Shown here: positions 4,541-47,623 of the stretch, piece after piece
How the letters are laid out: the number at the start of each line of letters is the position of its first letter
How positions within the stretch are numbered: the stretch's first letter is position 1
From: Candidatus Zixiibacteriota bacterium
GTDB lineage: Bacteria > Zixibacteria > MSB-5A5 > GN15 > FEB-12
Direction: 5' to 3'
DNA length: 64,000 bases
NCBI GenBank assembly: GCA_022571985.1
Contig: JACZWU010000010.1
Span: 4,322-68,321 of the forward strand
Position numbers and translations under genes: made by a program
Notes under the pieces: generated by a model
Seen by the model: only the letters and a program-made list of their open reading frames with translations
Database searches by the model: none
What the model was told of the DNA's origin: nothing

Positions 4541-4587
4541 TGGCGCACAGCTAAAAGGAACTTACTACAGCAAAAAAGGAGGCAACA

Positions 4588-15146: not shown

Positions 15147-15278
15147 GCTGGGAGACAGGGATTCTAAGAGCGTATTAGCGTAAGTATATGACTACGAGGC
15201 AATTGCACTGGGGCTCAAGATGTTACATCAAATAATACTTTTGTATTCTTTTGTCTAGTTTTATCTCTTTTTGTCTGT
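15147..15278. repeat. Distal att site of the 32-kb island: 18-bp direct repeat of the tRNA-Gln 3' end (15147-15164) plus arm homologous to 11131-11247
   Basis: gctgggagacagggattc is identical to 47553-47567+ of the tRNA gene. The arm similarity is described under 11114-11247. Confidence 0.8.
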
Positions 15279-17646: not shown

Positions 17647-18019
17647 GTTAATTTTTCACATATACAATTTATTTGCATCTGGAATTCCAGCTACATCTAT
17701 TGCATCGTTGTGACTATGTCATGACAATATGAGCTTGTCTTTATCGGCAACTAGATGTTCAGCGGTTATTGTCCTGGACTTCCAGAAGATTTCTGTGACC
17801 TTCATGGGATAATTGTAGTGCACTTAAGAATACACAGCATGTATTCTTCTTCTGCACAAAGGTCATTGAGGGGTAACGAAGAGAGCAATAGTAGAAAAAG
17901 AGAAATGGAAGCTATGGAAACATTGTTTGGAAACGAGAGTCAAAAATCGATCGGAAGTCGCCCTGAGGCTGGATCAGCCTTGTCAGGCACTTTCGATCAA
18001 GATTGGAAGAGGCATTGAG

Positions 18020-21591: not shown

Positions 21592-21594
21592 AAG

Positions 21595-29532: not shown

Positions 29533-31410
29533 GTGAATACAAATATAGAAGTAATTAAGGGGCTCGTCCTATCGGATCCGTTCATGATTGCATCCTCTCA
29601 TTGGACATCTACTGAAGCTGCGTTTCGAAGATTGGCCAAAGTGGCGCCAGCGGCCTTGACTCTCAAAACTACTTCAATACTAAATGGAGGGGACGGAAAG
29701 GATAAGCCAGGACTGAGCAGAACTAGTGAATGGTTGATTGACTCTGTTGGGAATAATTTTGGGAAGTTCCACGACGGACCTAGGACTTTGGAATTCTGGG
29801 ATATTGCAACGACATTTAATATGACAACGCATGCAAGGAGCATTCTGCCCAAAAATTGTAAGATCGGGCTCAGTGTCTTGCAGTTAGAGGACTACCCGAT
29901 GATCCTTAACGGTCTCAATATCGGCAACTATGATTTTGTTGAGCTTAATGGCAAATTTGCGTTTAGACCAATCAGCCAGTTTGTTGAATCGGGGTTGGAG
30001 AGAATCATTGCTGACATTGAATTATTTCTTGAGGAGTTTTCTGACCTACCTATTCTTTATAAGCTTCCACGTGAGGCGGTAGTACTTATAGGAACTGATC
30101 AATTTAAGAAATTGGTCAGCATAATATCTTCAGCGAATGCAGGAATTATTGTCGCCAATTCGATGAAGTGTTTAGTACCGCCTTCCCTTCTGCGCAAGAA
30201 CCGAAACAGTCAGTTGGACGGAGTGGTCGTGGGTGAGCAACTATTCCTTGAAACTTACAATATGGTTAATTCCGTCATAAATGATGACTATGATGGACAA
30301 TTATCACCCTCAGTCGTTGCTTCTGGCGGTGTATGTAACATAGGAGAGGTTCTTGATCTCTTTTCTGTTGGTGCAAAATCAATCCAATTGTGCACAGCTC
30401 TGGACACGTTCGGTCCAGAAATTGTGATGTGGTTTAGGGAACAATTAGACAAGATCTGTGAAAACCTAGGCCAGTTTCCGAGCCTAATCACCGACCTCAA
30501 ATCAGATAGCTCAACACACATTCGAGCCGCGCAAATGGCCAAAGAGTATAAATTCGATCACTTAAGAACGGTAGAGAAGGTCCTAATGGATAAAGGGAAG
30601 ATGCAAAATGCTTTTGCATATTCTCTTATGAAGGAATGCGTTGAAAGCCCTATTCCGGAACCGAGTGATGAGAAGGAGGATCTGCCCAATGATGTAGAGA
30701 TGGCCGTTATAGCAGGAAACGTATCTTCATTTCTAATCAGCATACGTTGTGTGATGAAATTCAATTTAGTCTCAAAGGAATTTGCTTCAACAACCTTTTG
30801 GCTCGAGTACCTAAAGCGAAGAGGTAACAGCTTCGATTTTGCTATTGTACCAAGATCATCACTCAAATACTTGGAAACAAATCCCGAAGCAGTAGATGAC
30901 AAAAATACTCCGATAGAATTAATTGTTGTCGCAAAATCCGTATACGAGCTGGTAGGCATGAAAGGCATGAAAATTGACACTCTTGAGACAGTGTACCGTT
31001 TTGACGGAACAAGCTCCAGGCATGCATTCGATTGTTTCTTGCAGGAGCAAAGCCCAATTCGTACTGCACTAATCAGTTCAAAAGAAAAGCTGTTGCCACT
31101 CTTTAAATTTTGGCATGATTCGTCTGCAATATTGATAAAGCCTCCACTGAGTCAAATTTACGGAATGCTCGGTAAACCAAATCTACTAGACAATTGGGAG
31201 AGCTGTTGGAGCACGGAAGAAGATCTTGTACTTGTGACATCAAAAAATTTGCTTAAGAGAGACGAAAATGGCAGTATACGTAAGAATATGATTAATGTGA
31301 TATTAACAGAAAAAAACGATTTGGCATCCAGACCTGATGTTGGAGCCAAAGAACTTATTAACATGGGTTTTCTAAACTATTGCCGGAATCTGTTGTATAA
31401 ATCTAGTTGA
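29533..31410 (+). CDS. Fusion protein: dihydroorotate-dehydrogenase-family TIM barrel (aa ~1-335) plus PBP (NMT1/SsuA)-like domain (aa ~395-625)
   Basis: GTG start with GAGAGG RBS. DHODH-like blocks: GLVLSDPFMIASS, ALTLKTTS, LIDSVGNNFG, DFVELNG, PILYKLP, IIVANS, VVASGGVCNIGEVLDLFSVGAKSIQLCTAL. The C-terminal domain carries …SFDFAIVPRSSLKYLETNP…VYRFDGTSSRHAF…AILIKPPLS…EDLVLVTSKNLLKRD…. Confidence 0.7.
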   Translation: MNTNIEVIKGLVLSDPFMIASSHWTSTEAAFRRLAKVAPAALTLKTTSILNGGDGKDKPGLSRTSEWLIDSVGNNFGKFHDGPRTLEFWDIATTFNMTTHARSILPKNCKIGLSVLQLEDYPMILNGLNIGNYDFVELNGKFAFRPISQFVESGLERIIADIELFLEEFSDLPILYKLPREAVVLIGTDQFKKLVSIISSANAGIIVANSMKCLVPPSLLRKNRNSQLDGVVVGEQLFLETYNMVNSVINDDYDGQLSPSVVASGGVCNIGEVLDLFSVGAKSIQLCTALDTFGPEIVMWFREQLDKICENLGQFPSLITDLKSDSSTHIRAAQMAKEYKFDHLRTVEKVLMDKGKMQNAFAYSLMKECVESPIPEPSDEKEDLPNDVEMAVIAGNVSSFLISIRCVMKFNLVSKEFASTTFWLEYLKRRGNSFDFAIVPRSSLKYLETNPEAVDDKNTPIELIVVAKSVYELVGMKGMKIDTLETVYRFDGTSSRHAFDCFLQEQSPIRTALISSKEKLLPLFKFWHDSSAILIKPPLSQIYGMLGKPNLLDNWESCWSTEEDLVLVTSKNLLKRDENGSIRKNMINVILTEKNDLASRPDVGAKELINMGFLNYCRNLLYKSS

Positions 31411-31444
31411 ACCCTTTCTCAAGATTTCTTAGTCTGAATTATGT

Positions 31445-32263
31445 ATGCATAGTGTTGACAAAATCATATCTGAGTTTGATGGAAGGATAGAACAAGTCCA
31501 AGAACTGTTTCGTGACTTTTGTGAGAGTACGTGCATAAAAGACTTGTTAAAAGGAGTGCCTTGCTGGGCCATCGTAGGGGGGGCAGTGCGTGATAATCTT
31601 ATTGCCAGAGAGATTGCACAGAATGTGGAGACTCTTTCTTCTATCTGGGCAGACCTAGATATTTGCATTCCTGTTGCAATTTCAGAGGTTTCTGGGATAC
31701 GATATCTTTCTCGAAGTCAGAGGTTTGATATTCGCCAAAACACTTTTGGCGGCACCAAAATTATTGATAAAGAGTTAGGATGCATTGACTTATGGACTTG
31801 GGAAGAACCTGGAACACATTCCTGTACAGTTCAAGATTGGCGTATTCGCATTTCGAAAGTTGATTTCGGAATAAATAGCGTTGCTTTCCTTTTTCCTCAA
31901 TTAGAGATTATCTCTGATAAGCGTCTTTATCTCGATTTGAATTGTCGAGAGGTCGAGAGGCTTTCGCCGCGTTTTTTGAAACGGCACCTGCAACCGCTAC
32001 GTGCATTAGCGATAGTTGACAAGTTAAATAAGAACTTTGAGGAACAGTTCGAGTTGGGTGTATTGATACAAAGCGAACTTATATGGTTAATGCACGAGGC
32101 TGACGAGACAATCTTGAACGCATCTTTTGCTTATTTGAAGGCAAAATTAACTACTGGCAGATGGTCCCGAAATCTCATACATCATCTGGATATTGCCTCT
32201 AGTAGTCTTGGATGTAGCGAAAGATTCTCACTAAAACTCACCGAGATTAAGGCAAATCTCTAG
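31445..32263 (+). CDS. Pol-beta-superfamily nucleotidyltransferase with class-II CCA-adding/poly(A) polymerase head signature, short form
   Basis: …CWAIVGGAVRDNLI… (GGxVRD, nt 31577-31594), then …WADLDICI… (DxD, nt 31652-31660) and …NTFGGTKIIDKELGCIDLWTWEE… At 272 aa it is much shorter than canonical CCA enzymes. Confidence 0.65.
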   Translation: MHSVDKIISEFDGRIEQVQELFRDFCESTCIKDLLKGVPCWAIVGGAVRDNLIAREIAQNVETLSSIWADLDICIPVAISEVSGIRYLSRSQRFDIRQNTFGGTKIIDKELGCIDLWTWEEPGTHSCTVQDWRIRISKVDFGINSVAFLFPQLEIISDKRLYLDLNCREVERLSPRFLKRHLQPLRALAIVDKLNKNFEEQFELGVLIQSELIWLMHEADETILNASFAYLKAKLTTGRWSRNLIHHLDIASSSLGCSERFSLKLTEIKANL

Positions 32264-32833: not shown

Positions 32834-35236
32834 TCAAACCGCTGCTCTGTTTTCATATAAATATTTTTGAAATCCAATAAATGTATCTCTGATATAATTG
32901 ATATCTCCCAACTCTCTTTTTGCATCAGTAATAGCTTTGTATTTTAGAGTCAGTAATTCTGGAAGTTTTGCAATATCAAGTTCTTTGACGCCAGATTCAA
33001 CATACTGTTCTAAAACAAAATCCAAAAACACTCTTTGTTTAGATTCATAATCCCCAAAATGTGATTTTGCGAATTCCGATCTTTGACTTCGCTTCAGAGG
33101 ATTTGTACTAAATGCCACAAAAGATAACACGTCATACAAATCACTTTCTTCTGCATGAATCATAGACTGTAAGTCTTGTAACTGACTTTGAGTAAATCCG
33201 GCTTCATTTAATTCTTGTAAGAGCTTTTTCCGTGTGTCAGGTTTGCTCCAAATAGCTCTTAATTCAGCTTCGCTCTTGAAGAAATCGGGCAAAGAACCAA
33301 ACATTGATTGTAAAAATTCTTCGGCTGAAATTGGCTTCCCATCCGGACTATAAAAAAGAGTCTGTACCATAGAATCCAACTCACGCACTTTGCCATCAGA
33401 CAGCTTCACTTTTATCATTATTGGCCCTGTAACTTTATCACAGATACAGGGCGCTTTTCCGCATATTGAACATCGTTCAGTAGGAGGCTTTTCACATACG
33501 CAGGGAGTCTGTTCACATTTTTTGCATTCCTTCGGTGCTGGACCTTCGCAGACACAGACAACCTCACCACAAGTTTCGCAGGGCAGAGCATCTCCATCCC
33601 ATTCAGGATCCAAGAAGTGTTTATGTGCACCCACGAAATCATATAGTGTAAAATAATCCTTACCGTCAAACAGGCGAGTACCTCGACCAATGATCTGCTT
33701 GAACTCTATCATAGTATTTACCGAGCGCATGAGAACAATATTCTTAAGCTCCGGGGCATCTACACCAGTGCTCAGTTTTTGAGATGTGGTAAGCACAGTA
33801 GGAATAGTTTTTTCATTATTCTGAAAATCCCGTAAATGCTGATTTCCCAATTCTCCCTCGTTTGCCGTCACTCTCTGACAGTAGCTTGAATCCGTGCTGT
33901 CAGCATGTTGGTTGATCAAATCCCTAACGGCAAGAGCGTGAAGTTGGGTGTCACAAAATACAATTGTTTTTTCATTTTGATTCATCATTTTCAAAAACAA
34001 CTTTACTCTATATTCCTCCCGTTCCTTTATCTCGATTACACGGTTAATCTCGGCCTCAGTATAGATTCTGCCTTCTTCAATCTCACCTTCAAGCACAGTA
34101 TCATCAGGGGTATAGACGTATTCATCAGCCGTAGTACTAATCTGCTTCACTCTAAACGGTGTCAGGAAGCCGTCATTTATGCCTTCTTTAAGAGAATAGA
34201 TGTAAACAGGTTCGCCGAAGTACTGATAAGTATCAATATTCTTATCCCGCTTGGGTGTCGCTGTGAGACCTATCTGTACTGCCGGGCTAAAATATTCCAT
34301 GATAGCTCGCCAGGTGCTTTCATCATTTGCCCCACCACGATGGCACTCATCGATCACAATAAGATCGAAATAGTCCTTAGGGTATTCGCCAAAATAAGGT
34401 TCGCCATTGTCTCCGCTCATAAAGCTTTGGAAAATTGTAAAGAAAACAGAACCGTTGGTTGGCACCTTGCCTTTTTTGCGGATGTCTGCCGGACGGATTC
34501 GCACCAAAGCATCTTCTTCAAAGGCTGAGAACGCATTGAATGCTTGATCTGCTAAGATATTTCTATCGGCCAAGAACAGAATTCGGGGTGTTCTCTGTCC
34601 ATCTCTTCGCAGGTTCCATCTACTATGAAATAATTTCCAAGCTATTTGAAATGCGATAGCGGTTTTACCTGTACCGGTGGCAAGGGTGAGAAGTATGCGG
34701 TTTTCACCTTTTGCTATTGACTCTAACGCTCTGGTGATGGCATTTTCTTGATAATAGCGGGGTTGCCATGTTCCGCTTCGGGTTTCAAAAGGTGTCTCAT
34801 GAAATTTATCCCGCCACTCGCCAGCTTCCTTGTTTACGCTATCTTCTTCAGCAAAGGTCATCTCCCACAATTCATCGGGACTTGGGAAATGATCCACATC
34901 CCCTTCTTTGCCTTTCTGCATATCGATACCGTAAATCTTCAACCCGTTACTGCTGTAGGTGTAGCGAACCTGTAACCTACCAGCGTAGTCCTTGGCTTGC
35001 CCAACACCTTCTGTATAATGCTTTTCGTCTGACTTTGCTTCAATAACAGCGAGATTACGATTGCGGTATTGCAAGACATAATCGGCAGAATCGGGTTTAC
35101 TACGTTTACCGTGACCGATTAGGCGACCTTTTGAGATAGGGAATTCCATGCGGATACGACTGCCATTTACTACTCCCCATCCGGCTTTTCTTAACGCCGG
35201 GTCAATATAGGTGGCTTTGGTTTCTGCTTCGTTCAT
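32834..35236 (-). CDS. hsdR: Type I restriction enzyme R subunit (EcoEI-like architecture with C-terminal helical domain)
   Basis: N-terminus MNEAETKATYIDPALRKAGW is the HsdR_N nuclease domain. SF2 motifs present: LTLATGTGKT (Walker A), IVIDECHRG (DEAH-like), LTATP, and QIIGRGTR (motif VI). Confidence 0.92.
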   Translation of the reverse strand: MNEAETKATYIDPALRKAGWGVVNGSRIRMEFPISKGRLIGHGKRSKPDSADYVLQYRNRNLAVIEAKSDEKHYTEGVGQAKDYAGRLQVRYTYSSNGLKIYGIDMQKGKEGDVDHFPSPDELWEMTFAEEDSVNKEAGEWRDKFHETPFETRSGTWQPRYYQENAITRALESIAKGENRILLTLATGTGKTAIAFQIAWKLFHSRWNLRRDGQRTPRILFLADRNILADQAFNAFSAFEEDALVRIRPADIRKKGKVPTNGSVFFTIFQSFMSGDNGEPYFGEYPKDYFDLIVIDECHRGGANDESTWRAIMEYFSPAVQIGLTATPKRDKNIDTYQYFGEPVYIYSLKEGINDGFLTPFRVKQISTTADEYVYTPDDTVLEGEIEEGRIYTEAEINRVIEIKEREEYRVKLFLKMMNQNEKTIVFCDTQLHALAVRDLINQHADSTDSSYCQRVTANEGELGNQHLRDFQNNEKTIPTVLTTSQKLSTGVDAPELKNIVLMRSVNTMIEFKQIIGRGTRLFDGKDYFTLYDFVGAHKHFLDPEWDGDALPCETCGEVVCVCEGPAPKECKKCEQTPCVCEKPPTERCSICGKAPCICDKVTGPIMIKVKLSDGKVRELDSMVQTLFYSPDGKPISAEEFLQSMFGSLPDFFKSEAELRAIWSKPDTRKKLLQELNEAGFTQSQLQDLQSMIHAEESDLYDVLSFVAFSTNPLKRSQRSEFAKSHFGDYESKQRVFLDFVLEQYVESGVKELDIAKLPELLTLKYKAITDAKRELGDINYIRDTFIGFQKYLYENRAAV

Positions 35237-35245
35237 TTTCTATTC

Positions 35246-36451
35246 TTATGCGGCCTTTTCTTCTGTCTCTGTAAGTTCGCCGTTGAATGCTTTATGCAGG
35301 ATGGACTTCTTGAGTTCGTCCAAAGAGTCAAATTCCTGTCGGTACTTTGATTCGAGAGATTGAGTTTGCTCATTCAAATCGTCAAGTTGAGCAACCATTG
35401 TTTTTTGGTTAAAAATATCGGCAGGATAACTGACGGCAAAGCCCTTGATCTGTTCTTTTGTTATTGCTTGGCGAGTGGCACCTTGCTCACCGATACCCAA
35501 CAGTAAATCTTTGTTGTCATCTGATATTAGCGAATAGTGCAAATACTTTGAGGTCATAATTTCCGGCTTCACTCTAATTATTGAAACATGTTGGTTAACT
35601 CTTGCGGGTAAGTATTCCTTGGGGACAACACAGCATCTTGCTACCGATGCTCCTGTAATATTCAATAATACATCACCCATTTTAACTTCGACGTTATCTA
35701 ATTTTGATGCTTGTTCATCATCAATGAATACAAGATTTCTTTTCCGAAATCCATCATCGTAAACATTGAGACTTCTAATTAAAGGAACCCCTGATTCTTT
35801 ATAAGATGTTTTACCACCTCTTGGAGTTGCGCCACTGCCAATTTTCGTTGTCAGTTCGTCCAACTTGTTCTCAACCCACCCGTCGCCTTTTTGGGCTAAG
35901 ATTTGGTTCAGTTGGCTTTGGAAGAGGTCTTTGGCGTTTTGGGTGTTGCGTTCTACGTTTGCTTTGGCCTTGTCGATTGCTTCGAAACAAATGTCTAATA
36001 TGGCAACTATGCGCTCTTGTTCAGGTAGGGGTGGGACGGGGATAGGAATACTTCCTATCTGAGCTTTATTAATCGAATTGAATACGGCGCCTACATTGCC
36101 ATCTATTTCATTCTCATGCTTCAAAAGGAAATTGAACAGAAATTCTTTATCAATTGATTTACTCGCTCTTATTGAGGCAAGTCCCCTTCCAATGCATATA
36201 TGTTGTTTTGAGAAGTTTACTGGTCCAACAGGTGCACGTACAGACATCAAAATGTCGCCTTCAAATGCTTCCTTTGTAATTCGGGATGTCCAAGTATTGG
36301 GATCACCTATATACTTGTCCGTAAACTGTTTTTTTCCTTGATAAAAGGGTAATCCTATTCCTTCCGAATTGTAGAATTTGCTCGCTGGCGATTGTCCTGC
36401 AATTACTTCACAAACTTCGCCTAATTGCCTCATTTCCCAACCCTGTTTCAT
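35246..36451 (-). CDS. hsdS: Type I R-M specificity subunit, copy 2 (two TRDs plus two conserved regions)
   Basis: 401 aa. Central conserved region: …LPEQERIVAILDICFEAIDKAKANVERNTQNAKDLFQSQLNQIL…. C-terminal conserved region: …LESKYRQEFDSLDELKKSILHKAFNGEL…. Confidence 0.9.
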   Translation of the reverse strand: MKQGWEMRQLGEVCEVIAGQSPASKFYNSEGIGLPFYQGKKQFTDKYIGDPNTWTSRITKEAFEGDILMSVRAPVGPVNFSKQHICIGRGLASIRASKSIDKEFLFNFLLKHENEIDGNVGAVFNSINKAQIGSIPIPVPPLPEQERIVAILDICFEAIDKAKANVERNTQNAKDLFQSQLNQILAQKGDGWVENKLDELTTKIGSGATPRGGKTSYKESGVPLIRSLNVYDDGFRKRNLVFIDDEQASKLDNVEVKMGDVLLNITGASVARCCVVPKEYLPARVNQHVSIIRVKPEIMTSKYLHYSLISDDNKDLLLGIGEQGATRQAITKEQIKGFAVSYPADIFNQKTMVAQLDDLNEQTQSLESKYRQEFDSLDELKKSILHKAFNGELTETEEKAA

Positions 36452-36500
36452 TTGTGCTCAATTCGCTTGCCGAAAATAGTGGGTTGACTGAAACTAATAC

Positions 36501-37661
36501 TCATGCGGCTACTTCTTCAGCTTCAGTCAGTTCGCCTTTAAATGCCTTTTGCAGGATTGACTTCTTGAGCTCGTCTAATGCCTCCAATTCTTTCTGATAG
36601 TTGGATTCAAGAGATCGGGTTTGTGATTTTAATTTATCAATTGTATTAACTATTTTCTTTTGTTTAGAAAGAGACGGGTAGGTTACTGGAAATTCTCTGA
36701 CTACATTTACGTTTAGATTGGGGACTCCCGAACTTTGAATACTCGCTTTTGCCAAGGATTTTATTAAAGGTGAGTTCAAATAAAATTTGAAATAGTAATT
36801 GTTTAGTTTGTCTGCGATTGGTCTGATAAGTGTTAAGCTTACATAAACACTAAATTCAAAGTCATGCTCAACTACACCTGCTTCTCCGTACTTTGCACCA
36901 ACTCTTGAGTATAAAATATCTCCTTTTTGAGGCTTGTTTTTTTTGGTTAAATGTTGATGGAATTTCTTGGAGATGAACCTATACTTATCTAATTGCACTT
37001 CTCCATTTTTAACATTTTGAGCCGATAAAAATGGAACACCAATATCCTCATCTACATATTTTGGCGTTGATGCCACTCCACATGTAATAATGCTACATAA
37101 ATCAAACATCTTCTTCTCAACCCAACCGTCACCTTTTTGGGTGAAGATTTGATTCAGTTGGCTTTGGAAGAGTTCTTTGGCGTTTTGCAGATTGAGTTCG
37201 ACATTGGCTTTGGCTTTGTCGATTGCTTCAAAGCACGTATCTAATATGGTAACAATGCGCTTTTGTTCAGGTAGTAGGGGAAAAGAAAGTTTTTTGTTTT
37301 TTAGTAAGCGATAGTGTCTCGCATACCCCAAATCATCTATGGGGATTGATTGAAGTTGATAGAAGAAAAAGCGAGCATCAATACTTTTAATTGGTAACAG
37401 TACTTTTACACCATCAGCACCCAAAACAAAATCAAAATCAATGTATTTTACCTTTTTGGTGTGGTCACCAAATATAACAATCGGTCTTTCCACTTTAAAC
37501 ACATCTTTAGGGTTGTCCCAATATCCATTGATAAAATCATCTTCTTGAGAAATAATTGGATACACCCCTTCGGTCAAGAATTGTTTTTTGGGTATCTTTG
37601 AAGTTGTCTTAACTGTATCAAGACAGTTTTCAAATTCTCTTGCTTTCCAATCTTGTTTCAT
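36501..37661 (-). CDS. hsdS: Type I R-M specificity subunit, copy 1
   Basis: 386 aa. It overlaps hsdM by 4 nt. Conserved regions are near-identical to the other hsdS (…LPEQKRIVTILDTCFEAIDKAKANVELNLQNAKELFQSQLNQIF…; …LESNYQKELEALDELKKSILQKAFKGEL…), but the TRDs differ. Confidence 0.9.
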   Translation of the reverse strand: MKQDWKAREFENCLDTVKTTSKIPKKQFLTEGVYPIISQEDDFINGYWDNPKDVFKVERPIVIFGDHTKKVKYIDFDFVLGADGVKVLLPIKSIDARFFFYQLQSIPIDDLGYARHYRLLKNKKLSFPLLPEQKRIVTILDTCFEAIDKAKANVELNLQNAKELFQSQLNQIFTQKGDGWVEKKMFDLCSIITCGVASTPKYVDEDIGVPFLSAQNVKNGEVQLDKYRFISKKFHQHLTKKNKPQKGDILYSRVGAKYGEAGVVEHDFEFSVYVSLTLIRPIADKLNNYYFKFYLNSPLIKSLAKASIQSSGVPNLNVNVVREFPVTYPSLSKQKKIVNTIDKLKSQTRSLESNYQKELEALDELKKSILQKAFKGELTEAEEVAA

Positions 37662-39115
37662 ATCAACTCTTTGATGCTCGCTAATATGTCTTTTGTTTCG
37701 CCATCCAGCGTTTCCATTTCGGCAAGAATTTCTTGCGGAGATCTGAGTGGTGCTTCTTCAGGTGCGTTGGGGTTCTTTACGCTCAAGTCATAGGTCTTAG
37801 TGTTAACGTCGACAATGTTCACCGTCCAGCTTTTCTCGCTCTCAGCTTTACTTTTTCGTAGTTTCTTGAACTCAGCCATATCACTATCATTCAGCGGATT
37901 GGTCTTGCCCATATTACGACCAGGCTTAAGCTGATAGTACCATATCTGTTTGGTCGGTTTTCCCTTATCAAAAAACAGCACAACTGTCTTTACTCCTGCC
38001 CCCAAGAACGTACCTGCAGGCATATCTAAAATAGTATGCAGAGAACAAGTTTCGAGCAGGTGCTTCCGTAAAGACGTAGAGGCGTTATCCGTATTGCTCA
38101 GGAATGTGTTTTTGATGACGATACCTGCACGACCACCGGCTTTGAGAATCTTAATAAAGTGTTGTAAAAAAAGAAAAGCGGTTTCGCCTGTTTTTATATC
38201 AAAATTCTGTTGAACTTCTTTCCGTTCTTTACCACCAAAGGGAGGGTTGGCCATGATCACACGGTATCTGTCTTTTTCCTGAATATCCCGAATGTTCTCA
38301 GTCAGGGTATTGGTATGAATGATATTGGGGGCTTCTATGCCATGCAGAATCATGTTCATTATACCTATGATAAACGCCAGATTTTTCTTTTCCTTACCGT
38401 AGAAGGTCTTTTCCTGAAGAGTCTTCAAATCAGTAGTGGTTAGCGAATCTCTGTCCTTAGTCATGCGAGCATAGGATTCACACAAGAAACCTGCAGAACC
38501 CACAGCCCCGTCATAAATCGTTTCCCCGATTTGTGGGTTCACGACATCAATGATGGCACGAATGAGCGGCCTTGGAGTGTAATACTGCCCTCCGTTACGC
38601 CCGGCATTACCCATATTTTTAATTTTGCTTTCATACAAATGGGACAGCTCGTGCTTGTCTTTGGTAGATCGAAATGGTAGTTCATCGGCAAGCTCAATTA
38701 TTTCGCGAAGATTATATCCGCTTTGTATTTTGTTCTTCAACTCAGTGAAAATCTCACCAATCTTGTATTCGATAGTTTGAGGGCCGTCAGCCTTCTCTTT
38801 GAATTTTGAGAGATAGGGAAAAAGTTTGCTATCGACAAATTGAACCAAATCAGGGCCAGTCATAGCTTTCTGATAGTCAAGTTTACCGTCTGCTGTTTTC
38901 GGCATTGCCCAATTGGCCCAACGGTATTCTTCATCAAGAATGAAACTATATTTCTTCCCCTTAAGTTCAGCTTCATCTTTCTTATCGAGTTCGAGATCAT
39001 CCAAATACCGAAGGAATAAAAGCCAAGACGTCTGGCCAATGTAGTCTAATTCACTATCCGCACCTGCGTCCTTGTAAAGGACATCATCAATATTCTTAAA
39101 AGTCTGTTCAAACAT
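37658..39115 (-). CDS. hsdM: Type I R-M N6-adenine DNA methyltransferase subunit
   Basis: An HsdM_N-like N-terminus, the AdoMet motif …IYDGAVGSAGFL… and the catalytic motif …IMANPPFGGKE…. Confidence 0.92.
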   Translation of the reverse strand: MFEQTFKNIDDVLYKDAGADSELDYIGQTSWLLFLRYLDDLELDKKDEAELKGKKYSFILDEEYRWANWAMPKTADGKLDYQKAMTGPDLVQFVDSKLFPYLSKFKEKADGPQTIEYKIGEIFTELKNKIQSGYNLREIIELADELPFRSTKDKHELSHLYESKIKNMGNAGRNGGQYYTPRPLIRAIIDVVNPQIGETIYDGAVGSAGFLCESYARMTKDRDSLTTTDLKTLQEKTFYGKEKKNLAFIIGIMNMILHGIEAPNIIHTNTLTENIRDIQEKDRYRVIMANPPFGGKERKEVQQNFDIKTGETAFLFLQHFIKILKAGGRAGIVIKNTFLSNTDNASTSLRKHLLETCSLHTILDMPAGTFLGAGVKTVVLFFDKGKPTKQIWYYQLKPGRNMGKTNPLNDSDMAEFKKLRKSKAESEKSWTVNIVDVNTKTYDLSVKNPNAPEEAPLRSPQEILAEMETLDGETKDILASIKELI

Positions 39116-39413: not shown

Positions 39414-42167
39414 GTGCCCGACCACAAGATTGATTTGACAAGAATTCAAGGCGCATACGACTTTGAGAGTCTAGTCACTAACTTGATCTTTTTTCATACT
39501 TTACTAAGCGTAGATTCTATTAAGAACTGCACTTCCAAGGATATATTCTGGGTGGAGTGGCAAAACGATAAGCATGAGAACTTCTATTATCGGTTTATCT
39601 TTGTTAGCCCTCAGCAACAGCCCGACGGGCTAGAAGCTTCTTTGAAAAAGAAATTTGATCAGAAAATCGCGCCTGATTTGAGTGCCAGACCGGATCATAA
39701 GTTCTACCTCTTCCTCAACACGAATCTGCACCCAGATCCCGAAAAGAAGTTCCCCAATCTGGAGGTGTCAACGGCAGATGACATCAGTGAGATCATCTCA
39801 AAGGAAAATTGGTGGCCGATATTCCACAAGTTCTTTGAAGGAGGCATGCATATCAAAGACGCCGAGGAGTGCGAGTTTCTCAAGGCGTTCGCAGAGTCCC
39901 TGGCTCCAGCAGTTGAAGGGTTGTCAATCAAGGAAACGACAAATGTCATCTCCTGGGTCAAGTATATCGCATTCTATCGGCCCAAAGAGACACTTGCTTT
40001 CTGCCACGCACTTTTCGATGCAACACCCAAGGATGACGAGGTAGAGAAGCACCTGGTATTCGGCGAGCTTACGCTCAACAGAATGAGTTATTTAGAAGAA
40101 CTCACGGGTATTCTCGAACCTATAGCAGCACATAAAGAACAATTCGGTGATGCACTTGAACTGCTTCTACGCATCTCAACTGAACTCGACGAAGATGTCC
40201 ATCCGTGGAAAGGCTACTTGTCAAAATCTGTAGAAAACCTCACTGGCTATTATTATGGACGAGATTTCCTTGTGAAGAGTGGCCGTGCAATTTACGATTC
40301 TAGTTTCAATCAAGAGACACTTGATGTTGTTGAGCGCATGCTTCAAGAAGAAACTGATATTGACCTCCTATTCAGATGTTTGGCGGTCCCTCCAAATTTG
40401 CTCAAGATGAAAGTAGTTACTTCGGAGTGGTCGGGCGACAAAAGTGTTGTAACGTGGAGAGAGTACCGCCTTCCATTAAACGATAAAAATTTGATTGAAG
40501 TCAGAAGAAGAGCACTACACCTAATGTTCAAAGCGTTTGAGGAATCAAAGAATGCAGACTTCAGACATAGGTGCCTTTTTGAATTACAAGATGTCTTTCG
40601 CCACATTTCATTGACTCCTGATCTTGAGAGCGAATTCAAGCAATTTCTTACGTTCATTAATTCTCACTCCGACGAGGAAGATCCCTATACGCAGAATTGG
40701 TTTCTCGAAATTCTTGAATTACTGGCTGGAACTGGATTGAAAAACATTGTTGAATCAATAGGTCCATTAAAGGACAAACTAAGTAACAAGTTTGAAGCGC
40801 AATTGTATCATCTGCTTTTCGGTAAGAAGTCATGGGAACTTTCTGAAATAAAACTGGAGCCCTTAGTAGATAGTGTTATTAAGTTTTGTGGCAACGATCA
40901 CAGAAAATTTATCCAGACATTGGATAGTTTTTACAATGCTGGCAATTCCTATGCACCTGGAATGCGAATTTTCTTACAAACCATCGGCATTTCACAAACT
41001 GACTTCGCAAGAAAGGTATTTGATACTTTTGCAAGAGATTTGTATTTGCACTCGAGCCTTTCGACTCAACTGATAAGGTCCCTGGGGTACCTGCTTTGTG
41101 GAATAAGGCTTCATGGTATTGAAGAATGGCAAAATACTGTTGAAGTTTTGAGAAATGATTTTAACAAAAACTCAGCTATCTTCATATTAACCAGCCTTCA
41201 ACTTCATGAATATGAAAAATTCGAAACTGGCGACCTTGAAACAATCGAATCATTGATCGAAAGTGCCGACGATGAGATCCGCATACTCGCGTCCGAGACA
41301 CTTTGGTACTTTTACAATTTTGGTGACTATTCAAAAGTACTCAAGATTTATGAAAAATTGGCCGCTCATATATCTCAAGACTTGGCCTCTTCAATCCTAA
41401 AAGGTCTGGCTCATGGTATACAAGAGGCTACTTATCCCGCAAAATGGGCAGACGTTGAAGGAAGAAAATCTCTTAAAGACATACTGTTTGTCCTAATTGA
41501 CTTCCCGAAAATTGACTGGGACACTTCGTCCAATTACTACTTGGAATTATTGCTTCGCCAATTATGGAAACACAGTACTGACGACCTACTCGAATTCTTT
41601 CAACTCCGCCTTGAACCCGAAAGAACCAAACGTGAGAGCTACGATCCCCTCCCATATGAGCTTGGTACTCTGTTTCAGAGAGTGAGCGACGAGAAGCAAA
41701 ATGAATTTGTGTCACGTGTCTTGGAATGGGACGTCAAGCACTACGGCATTTACTGGATAGCCCGCTTGATCGGCCTGGCCTGCAACAAGAATGTTCAGCC
41801 CGCGACCCTGGAAACTCTTCACAAGATTTTGGTCCGACCCCAAAAGAGCCAACTGCTTCTAATTGCCAAGTTGCTCGATCAGATTCCCCTCGGTGACACC
41901 TTTTACGAATTGTCCATGCGGATAGTCAAGAAGGGATATGGTCGGAAGGAGATTAGAAGTCAGCTGTATTCTTCCTTCATCTCAACCACCGGAGGTTCCC
42001 GGAAGCTAGGACAGCCATTCCCGTCACATGTTCAACACATGACGTTGATTGAGAAGTACCGGACCCTCAACAAGAAATCTAAGAAAGTTCAGACGTTTCT
42101 GGATTCCTGGAGTGCGGAAATCGAAGTCATGATGCAACGTGATGAGGAAGAGGATCTGGAGAGATAG
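39414..42167 (+). CDS. 917-aa protein: N-terminal ~130-aa alpha/beta domain followed by long alpha-helical (HEAT/ARM-like) repeats; unknown function
   Basis: GTG start with GGAGA RBS. No Walker A and no recognisable catalytic motif. The N-terminus …GAYDFESLVTNLIFF…DIFWVEWQ… is loosely reminiscent of restriction-endonuclease-fold N-domains but lacks a canonical (D/E)xK. Its stop abuts the next ATG (TAGATG). Confidence 0.6.
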   Translation: MPDHKIDLTRIQGAYDFESLVTNLIFFHTLLSVDSIKNCTSKDIFWVEWQNDKHENFYYRFIFVSPQQQPDGLEASLKKKFDQKIAPDLSARPDHKFYLFLNTNLHPDPEKKFPNLEVSTADDISEIISKENWWPIFHKFFEGGMHIKDAEECEFLKAFAESLAPAVEGLSIKETTNVISWVKYIAFYRPKETLAFCHALFDATPKDDEVEKHLVFGELTLNRMSYLEELTGILEPIAAHKEQFGDALELLLRISTELDEDVHPWKGYLSKSVENLTGYYYGRDFLVKSGRAIYDSSFNQETLDVVERMLQEETDIDLLFRCLAVPPNLLKMKVVTSEWSGDKSVVTWREYRLPLNDKNLIEVRRRALHLMFKAFEESKNADFRHRCLFELQDVFRHISLTPDLESEFKQFLTFINSHSDEEDPYTQNWFLEILELLAGTGLKNIVESIGPLKDKLSNKFEAQLYHLLFGKKSWELSEIKLEPLVDSVIKFCGNDHRKFIQTLDSFYNAGNSYAPGMRIFLQTIGISQTDFARKVFDTFARDLYLHSSLSTQLIRSLGYLLCGIRLHGIEEWQNTVEVLRNDFNKNSAIFILTSLQLHEYEKFETGDLETIESLIESADDEIRILASETLWYFYNFGDYSKVLKIYEKLAAHISQDLASSILKGLAHGIQEATYPAKWADVEGRKSLKDILFVLIDFPKIDWDTSSNYYLELLLRQLWKHSTDDLLEFFQLRLEPERTKRESYDPLPYELGTLFQRVSDEKQNEFVSRVLEWDVKHYGIYWIARLIGLACNKNVQPATLETLHKILVRPQKSQLLLIAKLLDQIPLGDTFYELSMRIVKKGYGRKEIRSQLYSSFISTTGGSRKLGQPFPSHVQHMTLIEKYRTLNKKSKKVQTFLDSWSAEIEVMMQRDEEEDLER

Positions 42168-42974
42168 ATGAATTCCGCTCTCCAAGATGTTCTCCAGTCG
42201 GTAAAGGCCTTCGATTCAACACAAGGTTTCAACAACCGCAATCATCTGGGTCTGAGGACCTTCGGAGAATTGTACGGACTGATACAGTTATGGAACAAAT
42301 CAGTGAAGTGCAGGTTTGACACCTGTGAGATCTACTATGGTTTTGTTCAGAACTTGGAACCCAACACTATTTTTGTCAAGCCCGGCGCGCTCAAGAAGGC
42401 AGAAGAGGTGCGATCCAAAATTGCATCAATACGATATAACGGTAGAGACGATTTCTTCCTAGGTATTAACTTTGCAATGGATGGATACTTGGCGAGCCTG
42501 TCAAGTACGTTAGACTCTTTAGCACAGATTGCCAATGCTGTGGCGTATAGTAGACCGATCGACGATGTGAGCTTTCGGAAGTTGGCCATGGACTGCAATG
42601 GTAGGAAAAACTCTTTTGAGGCCCTCATTGCCGACAATTACTATTTCCCAGGCAATTCTAATCTGTCGGTCGATACATGGACCAACGGCTTTAAAAAGAT
42701 GCGAAACAAGGGCATTCATGTTAACACTTTTTTCCCTTCAATTGGCAGTCTTCAGCTAGCGAACCCTGATCAACCAGCGGAGTACCCGCAATGCGAAATA
42801 ACGATAGATCCGACGTTCTTCACTGGTCTTCCGTCGACAGCTCAGCACGATATGCGTACTTACACTAAGCTGCTTCATAGCAAGGCGGAGGAGTTTGTCA
42901 AAGACGCACTCAAGGAATTGGGAGTCTGGCTTTCAGCTCAGCACAGTCAAGGACTCTCAATCCCGACTCATTGA
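42168..42974 (+). CDS. 268-aa protein with RNxxxH motif, candidate HEPN-domain (RNase) effector
   Basis: GGAGAG RBS lies inside the end of the upstream gene. …FAMDGYLASLSSTLDSLAQIANAVAY… is followed by …FKKMRNKGIHVN… (R179-N-K-G-I-H184, nt 42702-42719). This helix plus Rx4H arrangement is typical of HEPN families. Confidence 0.5.
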   Translation: MNSALQDVLQSVKAFDSTQGFNNRNHLGLRTFGELYGLIQLWNKSVKCRFDTCEIYYGFVQNLEPNTIFVKPGALKKAEEVRSKIASIRYNGRDDFFLGINFAMDGYLASLSSTLDSLAQIANAVAYSRPIDDVSFRKLAMDCNGRKNSFEALIADNYYFPGNSNLSVDTWTNGFKKMRNKGIHVNTFFPSIGSLQLANPDQPAEYPQCEITIDPTFFTGLPSTAQHDMRTYTKLLHSKAEEFVKDALKELGVWLSAQHSQGLSIPTH

Positions 42975-43381: not shown

Positions 43382-43783
43382 ATGAAACACATCTCACAAA
43401 TATGCAAGTCGCTCACTATAAGCGGAAATCAATGCAAGTCACCTCCACAAATTGGCATAGAATTTTGTTACTTTCATAATCCCGCGAATTTGCAGAAGAG
43501 AAAAACTGCTAGTTCAATCGGAGGTAAACGGGGAAAAATTCGCACGACTACGCTCAAGCTGGATACTGTCCATATCAGATCTTCACAAGACGTAGTAAAT
43601 TTGTTAGTAGAAACCGTTAATCAAGTGAGAGGAAGTGAAATTAATCCCCGCATTGCTAATGCCATCGGATATTTGACAGGAATAATCTTGAAAGCAAGAG
43701 AGCAAGGAGAAATTGAAAAGAGATTAAGCGAACTTGAATCTTCGCTTAGTCAGACAGAGCGGGAAATTAGCCTGTGTCATTAA
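43382..43783 (+). CDS. Small protein with N-terminal Cys/His knuckle (CKS…GNQCKSPP…FCYFH) and C-terminal helical tail; island regulatory module
   Basis: 133 aa with a GAGGGT RBS. The first gene after the non-coding gap that contains a TGTGCCAAT site (43287-43299). Confidence 0.45.
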   Translation: MKHISQICKSLTISGNQCKSPPQIGIEFCYFHNPANLQKRKTASSIGGKRGKIRTTTLKLDTVHIRSSQDVVNLLVETVNQVRGSEINPRIANAIGYLTGIILKAREQGEIEKRLSELESSLSQTEREISLCH

Positions 43784-44154
43784 AACAAAGGATTAGAGCA
43801 TTGGAAAGCCATCCAGTTTTACAAACAATGGGACCCAAAATTGATCCCATCATTGAATACATTGTTACAGGACAAGACTTTGATACTCTTTGCAAGAATC
43901 TTAATATATTTTACAGACCGTTGACCGGTCAAGGGGCATTGCTTCGATTGTACTTTGGGGAGCGAGATGTTGACCAAGACACCAAAAAACCTTTTTCAGA
44001 TAACATTTCTGCATGGCACCGAATTGTACTTGAACACATACTCCAATACCCACACAAAGTAGCTTTTCATTTAGCTGATTTTGATCTTCAACATTGGGAA
44101 GCGCAATTTCGTGAGTGTGAGCATATAAAGTACGGAAAGATACACGTGGCTTGA
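43774..44154 (+). CDS. Hypothetical protein
   Basis: 126 aa. Overlaps the previous gene by 10 nt. No motif recognised. Confidence 0.4.
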   Translation: MSLKQRIRALESHPVLQTMGPKIDPIIEYIVTGQDFDTLCKNLNIFYRPLTGQGALLRLYFGERDVDQDTKKPFSDNISAWHRIVLEHILQYPHKVAFHLADFDLQHWEAQFRECEHIKYGKIHVA

Positions 44155-44206
44155 ATGAAGAATTATATTAGCAAACTCGAACGATATTATTACATTAGGT
44201 TATTAT

Positions 44207-44695
44207 ATGGACCAGCCTATAAATCAAGACAATTATAAATACATAAGTGTTGTCAATAAAGTCCCACATGATTTATTAAATCGAGTTGCAACTGCTCTTA
44301 AAAAGTGTCATCTAGTTTCTTCAAAATATGAAGAATTTCGAAAATCAATGTTTTCGTATTTATCATTTCGAGTAAATAAAGATTGCGCATATGTAGGGAA
44401 ATCCGTTAATCGGCAAAGACACCAATCCTCTGCTAAAGGACCTGACTTTCGGTGCGTCAGGATCGCAGGAATCGAGCATACTTTAAGTTTTAGAGAGGCC
44501 CAAATTGTCAAGATTTTGTGGGAAGCCCATGAAAATGGGACCCCTGATGTCAGCAAAGACTACATAATCGATAAAGTTTGTGGACCTGACTCTAAAATAG
44601 TGACTTTGCGTGATGCGTTTACCGACAGATTAATATTTAAAGCCATTGTGGCTGTAGGAAAACGCAGAGGAACAGTTAGAATAATTTTAGATTAA
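44207..44695 (+). CDS. Hypothetical protein, possible C-terminal winged-helix DNA-binding domain
   Basis: 162 aa. …HTLSFREAQIVKILWEAHENGTPDVSKDYIIDKV… looks like an HTH/wHTH. Weak call. Confidence 0.4.
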   Translation: MDQPINQDNYKYISVVNKVPHDLLNRVATALKKCHLVSSKYEEFRKSMFSYLSFRVNKDCAYVGKSVNRQRHQSSAKGPDFRCVRIAGIEHTLSFREAQIVKILWEAHENGTPDVSKDYIIDKVCGPDSKIVTLRDAFTDRLIFKAIVAVGKRRGTVRIILD

Positions 44696-45011
44696 TTTTT
44701 CTCCTAGTATTTAGTAATACCGATTTTTTTCATTTTTTTTTGTTTCCCACGATATACCCCATGCTACTCCCAAATTCCTCCCGGTTAGTATTGTTATATT
44801 CATACTAAGCAATGGAAATAAAGACATACAAAACTTTGTGAAATCCTCGAATTGAAGCAGGTAGCTCCTTGCTGTTCCTGCTCTCGGGTGTGACGACTTT
44901 GAATAGGAAAGTAGAAGATTGAACAAGAGAGTCAATATTTGTACGCGGAAACTGTCCAATTATGATAGGGGCCGAAAAGAAAGGAATCAGAAACTAGTAC
45001 AAGCGGAAGAG

Positions 45012-45404
45012 ATGCCTACCACAATCCTTCCAGGCGAATATGATGCCATTTGTTACGATGTTGAACGCGGAATAAGCTGGGGAGGTCGTGAAAACATATA
45101 TATCAAATTTAAGATTTACGGTGGAGCGTTTGATGGCGCTGAGTTGTTTATGGCCTGTACTTATAAAATAAAATCAAAGATGAGCTACCGTCATAAATAC
45201 TATCAACAATTTTCAATCGCAAATGGGGGACCTCCTTTTAGAGGACAGAGACTTTCACCTTGTATCTTTAAGAATAAAATGTACCGGGTGCTAGTCAGAG
45301 ATACTGTAAGAAAGTTTCCAAACCAACGCTTGATGCCACAATTCCTGCAATATTCCGTTGTTGATACAATCTTGGAAGTATTGGCCGGAGGACCAATGCA
45401 ATGA
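45012..45404 (+). CDS. Hypothetical protein
   Basis: Track ORF starts at TTG 44919. I prefer ATG 45012 (MPTTILPGEYDAICYD…), which is preceded by GGAAGAG. No motif recognised. Confidence 0.4.
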   Translation: MPTTILPGEYDAICYDVERGISWGGRENIYIKFKIYGGAFDGAELFMACTYKIKSKMSYRHKYYQQFSIANGGPPFRGQRLSPCIFKNKMYRVLVRDTVRKFPNQRLMPQFLQYSVVDTILEVLAGGPMQ

Positions 45405-45764
45405 GATTCTGTAATTCCTTATCACTAATTCATAACGGATTATTAAAGTCTCTTAGTTATTTACTATCTACTCTTAACCTATTACAAACTACTACATACC
45501 AATTACCAACTTTCCTCACAGTTAAATGCTTGGCTGTTAATAAGCTAAGTTCCACTTTGCTGACGAAATTGTTCTACAAATATGAGGATGAGTACTTTCC
45601 CGAGGAGTACTCTGTTGATTTTTCTATAAACTACACAATCAACTACACGGGGGGGCACTTCTGCCCTCTCGTAATTTCCTCAATGTGTGGAGCTTGGTGT
45701 TATGGTAGAAGATTCGGTTCCTTAACAGGCGTTCATTATTGTGTTAGGAAAGCTCCATAGTCAA

Positions 45765-45977
45765 ATGAACCAACTATTGACAGCATCAAAAGTCGCTCAA
45801 TTGCTGGGTGTAAAAAAATCGACGATCTACCAATGGACTCATCAGCAATTCATACCGCACTTCAAAATAGGCAAGCTCCTTCGGTTTAAAGAAAGTGAGG
45901 TGATAAGTTGGATAGATAAACAATCAAGGAAAGGTCGGCATTTTCGACGAATTTCGATAAAGAACCCACGAAACTAG
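45765..45977 (+). CDS. Excisionase/AlpA-type helix-turn-helix (HTH_17-like) DNA-binding protein
   Basis: MNQLLTASKVAQLLGVKKSTIYQWTHQQFIPHFKIGKLLRFKESEVISWIDKQ is the classic MerR-like excisionase HTH. Track start is 45741. Confidence 0.75.
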   Translation: MNQLLTASKVAQLLGVKKSTIYQWTHQQFIPHFKIGKLLRFKESEVISWIDKQSRKGRHFRRISIKNPRN

Positions 45978-45998
45978 AATGTAAATTAGGAGGATTTC

Positions 45999-46346
45999 AT
46001 GAAAGACAATCAAGTTTCTGATGCAATGGTAAGAATGCGTGCAAGTTGGTTGGCTTGGAGATATGAACTCGAATGCGAAGAAGTTATGAACGTCTTAATG
46101 AGAACAAAAATTACTGTAAATGAATCAATTTCTTCAGATTATTTTCACTATTTAGTTTTCGAGCCTTCCCTCGAAACAGCACTTTTATTCCTTAAGCCCA
46201 AAATTGCTTTGATGCTGTTTAGTGATGTGAGCATGGAAGAAATTAAAGCGTGGCTTGAACAAACTGAGACATTACTTGGAAATTTTGTAATTGAGATTCA
46301 TAGCATTGAAGGGTTGTGCGGAATGGAGGGCGAGTATGTTATTTAA
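45999..46346 (+). CDS. Hypothetical protein
   Basis: 115 aa with an AGGAGG RBS. No motif recognised. Confidence 0.45.
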   Translation: MKDNQVSDAMVRMRASWLAWRYELECEEVMNVLMRTKITVNESISSDYFHYLVFEPSLETALLFLKPKIALMLFSDVSMEEIKAWLEQTETLLGNFVIEIHSIEGLCGMEGEYVI

Positions 46347-46388: not shown

Positions 46389-47453
46389 TCATTTGTACGA
46401 GAGCTTATTCATTGCATCAGATAAATGGTCTGTAGCAAGATGTGAATAAATCATTGTCGTCTTAACATCAGAGTGTCCAAGCAGTTTTTGTACTGTAGGT
46501 AAATCAATGCCCTGCATAATCATGTGACTTGCAAACGTGTGACGCAAAGTATGAATCTTAGTAACGTCTGGGTAGCCACAGCGTTTCGAAATTGTTTTCA
46601 GACGTTCTCTTAGCTTTAAAGTAAGTGGACCACCATTTTTCCCTTCAAATATAAAGTCGTTCTTCCCCACGCGCTTTCCTCTCAATTCAACGAATAATTT
46701 TTGAACAGATTCTGACATTGGAATTACACGTTCGCCAGTTTTCGGACTCCAATACTCTTTTGCTTGTATTTTGATTCTCCTTTGTTCAATTTCAATGTCG
46801 TTCCACGTAAGATATTTTAACTCGCCCAATCTCATACCGGTGTTAAGCAGTAGAAAGAAAATCGGATAAAGTTCTTCACCACAATTATCCAGAAGCAATT
46901 TTATCTCGTCCTTTGTTAGAAATCGAGGCATTCTTGCATCATTTACTTTTAATTTATTTACACCTCTGGTAGGATTGACTTTTAAGTATTCCCATTTTAT
47001 CGCATAGTTCATCAAAGTTCGAAGTGTCTTAAGTTCCATGTTGACAGTATTTGATTTTGCAATGATGCCTTTATTAAGCGGGGTTGTACGTCGCCACACC
47101 TTGTATTCTTCGAACAGTTTAGGTGTCAACTGACTCAGATTCATCGATTGATTCCGCATCTCAAGAAACTGCTCAAAATTCGCAAATATGTTCTTGTACC
47201 TCACGTAACTTGATTGAGCGTGATTTACCTTTGAGAATTCGTCAAACTCCTTGAGAAAATCGTTGAGTTTAACTTCGGTCATTGACAGATTCAATTCTCC
47301 TCTCATGATTCGAAGCTCAATATCAGCCAAGGCTAACTCAGCAAGTTTTTTAGAGGGACCTATTTTCTTGCGATACCTACGCCCCTGATAGGTATAGTCT
47401 GCGTACCATGTTCTCTTACCCCTTTTCCCAATTCTTTGATAAATTCTTCCCAT
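46389..47453 (-). CDS. Tyrosine recombinase/phage-type integrase
   Basis: The catalytic region …GMRLGELKYLTWNDI… carries the Arg, and …HTLRHTFASHMIMQGIDLPTVQKLLGHSDVKTTMIYSHL carries H-x-x-R…H…Y. I prefer ATG 47453 (MGRIYQRIGKRG…). The track start 47477 would read through the TGTGCCAA tandem sites. Confidence 0.9.
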   Translation of the reverse strand: MGRIYQRIGKRGKRTWYADYTYQGRRYRKKIGPSKKLAELALADIELRIMRGELNLSMTEVKLNDFLKEFDEFSKVNHAQSSYVRYKNIFANFEQFLEMRNQSMNLSQLTPKLFEEYKVWRRTTPLNKGIIAKSNTVNMELKTLRTLMNYAIKWEYLKVNPTRGVNKLKVNDARMPRFLTKDEIKLLLDNCGEELYPIFFLLLNTGMRLGELKYLTWNDIEIEQRRIKIQAKEYWSPKTGERVIPMSESVQKLFVELRGKRVGKNDFIFEGKNGGPLTLKLRERLKTISKRCGYPDVTKIHTLRHTFASHMIMQGIDLPTVQKLLGHSDVKTTMIYSHLATDHLSDAMNKLSYK

Positions 47454-47456
47454 AAT

Positions 47457-47480
47457 CGTTTGGCACAAATTTGGCACAAG
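47457..47480 (-). promoter_or_regulatory. Tandem 11-bp-phased TGTGCCAA sites immediately upstream of the integrase start
   Basis: The minus strand reads cttgtgccaaatttgtgccaaacg. It ends 4 nt before ATG 47453 and lies about 70-95 nt from the tRNA/att core. Confidence 0.6.
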
Positions 47481-47549: not shown

Positions 47550-47623
47550 TGGCTGGGAGACAGGGATTCGAACCCCGATTACACGGTTCAGAGCCGCGCG
47601 TTCTACCGTTGAACTATCTCCCA
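47550..47623 (-). tRNA. tRNA-Gln (anticodon CUG), CCA encoded
   Basis: Folded by hand on the minus strand. Acceptor stem is TGGGAGA/TCTCCCA, D-stem GTTC/GAAC, anticodon stem CGCGG/CCGTG and anticodon loop CTCTGAA (CUG). Variable region is TAAT, T-stem CGGGG/CCCTG and T-loop TTCGAAT. The discriminator is G followed by CCA. Confidence 0.88.

Follow-up and report, generated by a model that had tools for sequence, protein, structure and literature searches.

In a 64,000-nt stretch of metagenome-derived DNA from Candidatus Zixiibacteriota bacterium (contig JACZWU010000010.1, positions 4,322 to 68,321; hereafter the window, whose numbering is used throughout unless another locus is named), two adjacent genes encode a 917-residue protein with predicted helical repeats (the large protein) and a 268-residue protein with an RNxxxH motif resembling that of HEPN RNases (the small protein), and we found that this pair recurs as a linked module in other assemblies. 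Our preferred explanation, to which we would give slightly less than an even chance, is a self-contained, horizontally mobile conflict module that joins a sensor or regulator to a HEPN-like RNase and that most likely acts in abortive-infection-type phage defence. In its more specific form, which we hold more tentatively still, the pair would be an undescribed two-gene anti-phage system in which a HEAT-like solenoid free of any nucleoside triphosphatase (NTPase), with a novel N-terminal alpha/beta domain, directly senses infection and releases a member of a new HEPN-like RNase family, the effector being an exchangeable cassette. That the small protein is a HEPN-like RNase is, judging from its sequence, somewhat probable; the HEPN fold, RNase activity, complex formation, direction of regulation and defence phenotype are all points that we infer. 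The features of the pair are as follows.

39414–42167, + strand: large gene, GTG start, 917 amino acids (aa), with a ribosome-binding site (RBS), GGAGA, 6 nt before the GTG
39414–39803, + strand: N-terminal alpha/beta domain of the large protein, ~aa 1–130, from AlphaFold2 (AF2) secondary structure
40242–40268, + strand: loop T277-G-Y-Y-Y-G-R-D-F285 of the large protein, with T277, G278, R283, D284 and F285 invariant
41970–42038, + strand: C-terminal motif SSFISTTGGSRxxGxPFPSHxxH of the large protein (aa 853–875), kept even in the 30%-identical homologues L015 and L021
42154–42170, + strand: coupling junction, GGAGAG (RBS) - A - TAG (large-gene stop) - ATG (small-gene start)
42168–42974, + strand: small gene, ATG start, 268 aa, predicted four-long-helix protein and candidate HEPN-like RNase effector
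42513–42515, + strand: codon of D116, the acidic residue invariant in 10 of 10 lineages, within the second long helix (93–126)
42702–42719, + strand: codons of R179-N-K-G-I-H184 (Rx4H motif in which Asn follows Arg), located at the C terminus of the third long helix

The case for a module rests on homologues of both proteins, which also exclude that the two open reading frames (ORFs) arose by chance. The family is very rare, with ~12 loci, all from metagenomes or metagenome-assembled genomes. For the large protein, a 5.8-billion-cluster collection contained eight homologues with 44–54% identity, and two further ones with ~30% identity (L015 and L021; loci are given L numbers here) were reached via the small protein, the large homologues overall being 29–57% identical to the window protein. 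For the small protein, a word-indexed search and a seven-sequence profile returned only the protein itself plus one partner, and the former missed even the 61%-identical small protein encoded beside the L001 large gene. Small-protein homologues were recovered through the neighbourhoods of large genes and by exhaustive HMMER searches, so that a verdict of 'orphan' from the word-indexed search alone would be wrong. All 12 loci that have a large homologue with room downstream carry a small gene directly after it, the slot holding an ORF of 238–268 aa. An exhaustive phmmer search of 1.84 billion representatives added only four small proteins, and among the three scored for linkage (all but P0012), two lie directly behind large homologues of 913–925 aa and the third lies at a contig start, just behind a C-terminal fragment of a large gene. 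A scan of 185,579 species genomes gave one locus and the Joint Genome Institute (JGI) metagenomes gave three, several of these duplicating known loci, and tblastn found no match for either protein in plasmid and phage records. The phyletic spread is extremely patchy, which we count as a signature of conflict systems.

The arrangement of the two genes is as conserved as their adjacency. The preliminary description of this DNA, made by reading its letters, had proposed that the genes are translationally coupled, with the stop TAG directly followed by ATG and a GGAGAG RBS inside the large gene, and the sequence reads exactly so; moreover, the distance between the large-gene stop and the small-gene start is 0, −1, −4 or −14 nt in all but one of 11 loci, the exception having +22 nt. 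When the neighbours of the loci were compared all against all, only these two genes proved common, and a third conserved gene was dropped as a candidate. The survey of neighbourhoods suggested in that description thus found the pair linked in other loci, and not, as had been named there as fatal to the proposal, separated. Given conserved adjacency and spacing with no other shared neighbour, we take the pair to be a real, autonomous, translationally coupled two-gene module. Scans for promoters and terminators flanking the pair performed no better than on shuffled sequence. Pfam, NCBIfam release 20 and PADLOC 2.0 yielded nothing above threshold for either protein or any family member, in keeping with the earlier remark that the pair was not recognised as a named system, and PDB sequences gave no match to profiles of both families, to the D116–H184 core of the small protein or to the N-terminal domain of the large one.

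In the small protein, the helical segment LSSTLDSLAQIANAV begins at residue 111 and MRNKGIH begins at residue 178, so that the order of these elements and the numbering of R179 and H184 given in the preliminary description hold. Across ten small-protein lineages with 10–61% pairwise identity, D116, R179 and H184 never vary, and position 180 is N in nine and His in the tenth; D116 and R-N-x3-H are the sole invariant polar residues of the family, and a C-terminal Pro is nearly invariant. An AF2 model (predicted local distance difference test, pLDDT, 76.5 and predicted template-modelling score, pTM, 0.76, built from only six sequences) has long predicted helices at residues 32–61, 93–126, 171–185 and 229–260, core helices being 30–34 residues long, with short helices linking the second long helix to the third and a low-confidence loop (186–208) after helix 171–185. 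HEPN domains have been defined (Anantharaman et al., 2013; PMC3710099) by an Rx4–6H motif that closes helix 3, a polar residue (N, D or H) immediately after the motif R, an acidic residue in helix 2 near the motif, typically within Ex3[KR], and a variable insert between helices 2 and 3. Members of the superfamily are metal-independent RNases that leave a 2′,3′-cyclic phosphate, and they form dimers that share a composite active site. As far as sequence and predicted secondary structure show, all four elements of the HEPN layout appear to fit the small protein: the motif R and H occur in all ten lineages, the residue after R is N in nine and H in one, and the acidic residue is present in variant form as D116 within the predicted helix 93–126.

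The small proteins fall into two types, A (window, L001, L005, L010, L015, L021 and L022) and B (L004, L008 and L009), which are only 10–18% identical to one another. A single hhalign comparison of the two (P = 6e-4) nonetheless gave a collinear alignment of 205 columns in which D, RNxxxH and the C-terminal Pro coincide. Among the large proteins, pairs with 72% identity (L001 and L008; L010 and L009) have small partners of different types, these being 11–16% identical. From the sequences, it looks as if effector cassettes have been exchanged or the effector has diverged very fast; either is typical of conflict systems.

For the large protein, the preliminary description had proposed an N-terminal alpha/beta domain of ~130 residues followed by an all-helical, repeat-like remainder without an NTPase motif. 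An AF2 model built from nine sequences (pLDDT 81.9, pTM 0.63) agrees as to the alpha/beta domain at ~1–130 and has an alpha-solenoid after it, which is almost but not entirely helical, being interrupted by three beta-hairpins (209–221, 285–294 and 333–352). Neither a Walker A motif (P-loop) in any of 11 large homologues nor an above-threshold match to an NTPase family, for the window protein or its family members, could be found, as had been claimed. Foldseek with the large model gave 120 PDB matches at E ≤1e-3, all to karyopherins, CAND1, SF3B1, condensin HEAT subunits, PP2A-A or beta-catenin, and weak HEAT_2 matches occurred in three of nine members; since template-modelling (TM) scores were only 0.15–0.38, this likeness is generic and not evidence of homology, and on the predicted model we place the large protein in the HEAT/ARM alpha-solenoid structural class. 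Its N-terminal domain has no family or PDB sequence match, and Foldseek with the large model assigned none. Among 11 sequences, F17, F26, D43, I62, F81, N102, I124 and I128 are invariant in this domain, only D43 and N102 being polar. A PD-(D/E)xK nuclease was considered for it and rejected: D43 is invariant and residue 18 is acidic in every sequence, yet a conserved (D/E)xK is lacking, and so we do not call the domain a nuclease; the homologues from L015 and L021 have neither R60 nor K84. Beyond this domain, the T277–F285 loop and the 853–875 motif are strongly conserved and non-helical. The loop, around which the model has pLDDT <50 (residues 260–282 and 286–290), may form a binding surface. 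The central solenoid (~aa 390–560) is the least conserved part and has a mosaic of identity between otherwise close large homologues.

Taken together, these features suggest how the module might act. The small protein would be the effector, a divergent HEPN-like, metal-independent RNase with a putative active site in which R179, N180 and H184, closing core helix 3, would be joined by D116 from helix 2 of the model. Through translational coupling, the large protein would be made in fixed proportion with the effector and, as scaffold or sensor, would bind the RNase and hold it silent until a trigger, either a phage protein or a ligand derived from infection, is recognised by the solenoid or the N-terminal domain. 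Trigger binding would then release or activate the RNase, leading to RNA cleavage and growth arrest. This proposal draws by analogy on HepT/MntA, on PrrC-EcoprrI, on ApeA and on the HEAT-like sensor of DSR2.

The window provides a genomic setting for the pair, with these features around it.

32834–35236, − strand: hsdR, NF046051 (EcoAI/FtnUII), 813.7 bits, cut-off 550
35246–36451, − strand: hsdS, 401 aa
36501–37661, − strand: hsdS, 386 aa
37658–39115, − strand: hsdM, divergent from the pair across a 298-bp spacer
46389–47477, − strand: tyrosine integrase, adjoining the 3′ end of tRNA-Gln(CTG)
47550–47623, − strand: tRNA-Gln(CTG), the sole Rfam match in the whole window

The hsd genes (32834–39115, − strand) make up what, by sequence, is a complete EcoAI-type type I restriction–modification (R-M) system lying outside the module. 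The preliminary description had placed the pair next to this system and divergent from hsdM; the orientation and, within the window, the adjacency are correct, but no R-M system lies beside the pair in other loci. Because adjacency is confined to the window, we consider it incidental and reject a functional link between the pair and the R-M system. The two tandem hsdS genes, which have the same orientation, have two direct repeats in common, one of 168 nt (85% identity) and one of 174 nt (72%), which correspond to conserved hsdS regions and could permit recombination between target-recognition domains; no invertase or recombinase gene was found beside them.

The integrase and tRNA-Gln(CTG) are candidates for the right end of an integrative island. 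The 3′ end of the tRNA is repeated directly at 15147–15164 (18 nt, GCTGGGAGACAGGGATTC) and at 11114–11130 (17 nt), the right flanks of these two copies resemble one another, and G+C is lower between ~26 and 48 kb of the window. The repeats suggest an integrative island of ~32 kb (15147–47567, candidate boundaries) that contains the pair, possibly with the remnant of a tandem island at 11114–15147. Between the pair and the integrase are six small ORFs on the + strand (43382–46346; 115–162 aa) with no significant Pfam match, which may be regulatory or excision genes of the island. Just beyond hsdR, within the low-G+C stretch, the interval 29533–32263 holds a 625-aa ORF with a sub-threshold dihydroorotate-dehydrogenase-like match (E 2e-4, 21 bits vs a cut-off of 27) and an adjacent 272-aa ORF with no family match, neither of them matching PADLOC. 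Also within the candidate island is a resistance–nodulation–division (RND) efflux operon (17927–24792) encoding an outer-membrane factor, a membrane-fusion protein and an AcrB-type pump, the 735-aa membrane-fusion protein having two HlyD_D23 stretches that are apparently duplicated.

Other loci differ in their surroundings. In L004, the pair has beside it genes for a tyrosine integrase and a serine recombinase as well as a QatC-like gene (E 1e-46): divergent from it, at 3757–6361 of that locus (− strand), are genes for a 615-aa QatC-like protein (PADLOC QatC) and an unassigned 255-aa protein, with the recombinases further upstream, and these two genes may represent a Qat system, partial or variant, that shares the island with the pair. 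L022 has genes for a helix-turn-helix protein and for a serine recombinase, the latter a homologue of the L004 enzyme. These homologous large serine recombinases (37–1509 in L004, 3621–5204 in L022) occur in loci that are otherwise unrelated, a hint that one class of integrative element in particular carries the module. In the remaining loci the neighbours are unrelated genes for metabolism or the envelope. Overall, the gene contents point to a mobile module that in some cases forms part of a defence island.

Comparison with described systems brings out likenesses but no membership. ApeA (Gao_Ape) is a single-protein HEPN anti-phage tRNase of ~550–600 aa that causes abortive infection by cleaving tRNA anticodons; it has N-terminal and Mid domains, forms doughnut-shaped oligomers, and its HEPN domain is strongly diverged, with the active site on H3 and an H3–H4 insertion. 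ApeA genes have been noted inside R-M operons (PMC3710099). Among profiles, HEPN_Apea and Cas13-ApeA match the Rx4H region of the small protein best, although below threshold, and the H3–H4 insertion recalls the long loop before the last helix in our model. The small protein, however, has only 268 aa, lacks the ApeA N-terminal domain and any full-length PADLOC or Pfam match, and is paired with a separate 917-aa protein, so that we do not assign it to ApeA. The HEPN-MNT pair HepT/MntA (type II/VII toxin–antitoxin, TA) is an operon of two genes in which a small, free-standing HEPN toxin with Rx4H at the end of helix 3 is controlled by a protein partner (PMC3710099), and in this it resembles what we propose for the pair described here. 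MntA is a small nucleotidyltransferase, whereas here the partner is a 917-aa solenoid, with no match to a nucleotidyltransferase family in any of nine large-protein members, and a minimal HEPN domain has only about half the size of the small protein; the pair is thus not of the HEPN-MNT type.

The anticodon nucleases PrrC and RloC, which have a HEPN-type Rx4H RNase motif and represent a latent nuclease restrained by its partner within a type I R-M operon (PMC3710099), share with the window the motif and the adjacent type I R-M system, but they have an N-terminal ABC ATPase, whereas the pair has no ATPase family match and lies outside the R-M operon, which sets it apart from this group. STAND/Avs-type sensors are defined by a central STAND NTPase that separates effector and repeat sensor, and the lack of a P-loop noted above for the 11 large homologues separates the large protein from them. 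For the way in which the large protein might act, the closest analogy is DSR2, in which a SIR2 NADase is reportedly fused to a HEAT-like solenoid that recognises a phage protein, that is, an NTPase-free HEAT-like repeat coupled to a toxic effector; AbiA and AbiK are likewise said to be reverse transcriptases with HEAT-like and HEPN domains. Unlike these, the pair has no detectable SIR2 or reverse transcriptase domain, and its effector is a separate, swappable gene.

Several results weigh against reading the pair as a HEPN-based defence module. The preliminary description had put forward structure and profile searches as the check on its HEPN assignment, and these, when run, returned neither a HEPN structure nor an above-threshold HEPN profile, so that of the earlier claim it is the motif, invariant and placed according to the HEPN layout, that stands, and the fold that does not find support. 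Foldseek with the small model gave a best E of 0.46 against PDB, with no HEPN chain in the top 50 matches, and 0.33 against BFVD, with one insignificant RNaseLS-like match at rank 24; the matches, all non-significant, were to long helical bundles (XaxA/ClyA and the fumarase/adenylosuccinate-lyase type). Full-length members gave no Pfam match at E up to 10. With the family consensus or core fragments, the only recurrent weak matches among 24,736 Pfam and 5,027 PADLOC models were HEPN models: HEPN_Apea in Pfam at E 0.06, 0.013 and 0.0027 (14–18.6 bits, the best of any curated HEPN family, vs a cut-off of 24.4), HEPN pEK499_p136 in Pfam at E 0.086 (13 bits vs 26.6) and Cas13-ApeA in PADLOC at E 0.0025, sub-threshold. 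Replacing R, N and H by Ala removes these matches, four further members give none and a reversed-sequence control yields a chance match at E 0.05; since the matches are lost with the motif, they restate it and add little independent evidence. The acidic residue, moreover, is Asp in an L-D context and not part of the usual Ex3[KR]. As regards the module as a whole, known defence genes are adjacent in only two of ~10 informative loci (the R-M system of the window and the QatC-like gene of L004), and a search for large-protein residues that co-vary with the type of the small partner found none, which is not what a tight, specific interface predicts.

Some of this evidence would also fit a small protein that is not HEPN, in which D, R, N and H form another catalytic or ligand-binding site within a long-helix bundle, the pair then being a conflict or regulatory module of other chemistry. 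We consider this unlikely, though well worth keeping in view: the best Foldseek matches are to the bundles named above and not to HEPN, the curated HEPN models all stay below threshold with motif-dependent weak matches, and the core helices, at 30–34 residues, would be longer than those of minimal HEPN domains. Nonetheless, R-[N/H]-x3-H on helix 3 with an upstream acidic residue on helix 2 is the exact HEPN signature, a diverged HEPN domain such as that of ApeA needed specialised structure aligners to be matched to HepT, and because the Foldseek matches of the small model all have TM ≤0.37 and E >0.3, no alternative fold is supported either.

Even with a HEPN-like toxin neutralised by the large protein, the same biochemistry might serve addiction or stabilisation of integrative elements in a TA-like module. 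The location of pairs on islands with an integrase or recombinase speaks for this, as do the tight coupling, in which the putative neutraliser comes first as it does in type II TA operons, and the established standing of HEPN toxins with protein partners as a TA class (PMC3710099). We nevertheless think such a role rather unlikely, in that a 917-aa solenoid far exceeds the usual size of an antitoxin and the variable central region of the large protein resembles a recognition surface; many TA modules also defend, so the two roles are not exclusive. Highly improbable, in our view, is an ordinary cellular pair of scaffold and accessory protein, for instance in RNA processing or regulation, that came to lie on islands by chance and has no part in conflict. 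HEAT/ARM solenoids are indeed generic scaffolds, and several loci have glycosyltransferases, GGDEF proteins, polysaccharide export or YbeY/CorC as neighbours, but such a pair would hardly be so extremely rare and patchy among ~15 billion proteins, with but one match in the species genomes, nor would one expect variable neighbourhoods, mobile-element genes nearby and a swapped effector.

The practical impact of the family, which is very rare and has come only from uncultured bacteria, is modest. The family is missed both by the profiles of current defence finders and by word-indexed search, which makes it a useful test case for detection methods, and the existence of close large proteins with very different partners offers a natural experiment on the compatibility of sensor and effector during exchange. 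If confirmed, the conflict module proposed here would extend the range of RNase-based abortive-infection systems by a HEPN family and a sensor architecture that are both new, with a large NTPase-free solenoid as the sensor and an effector encoded by a separate gene.

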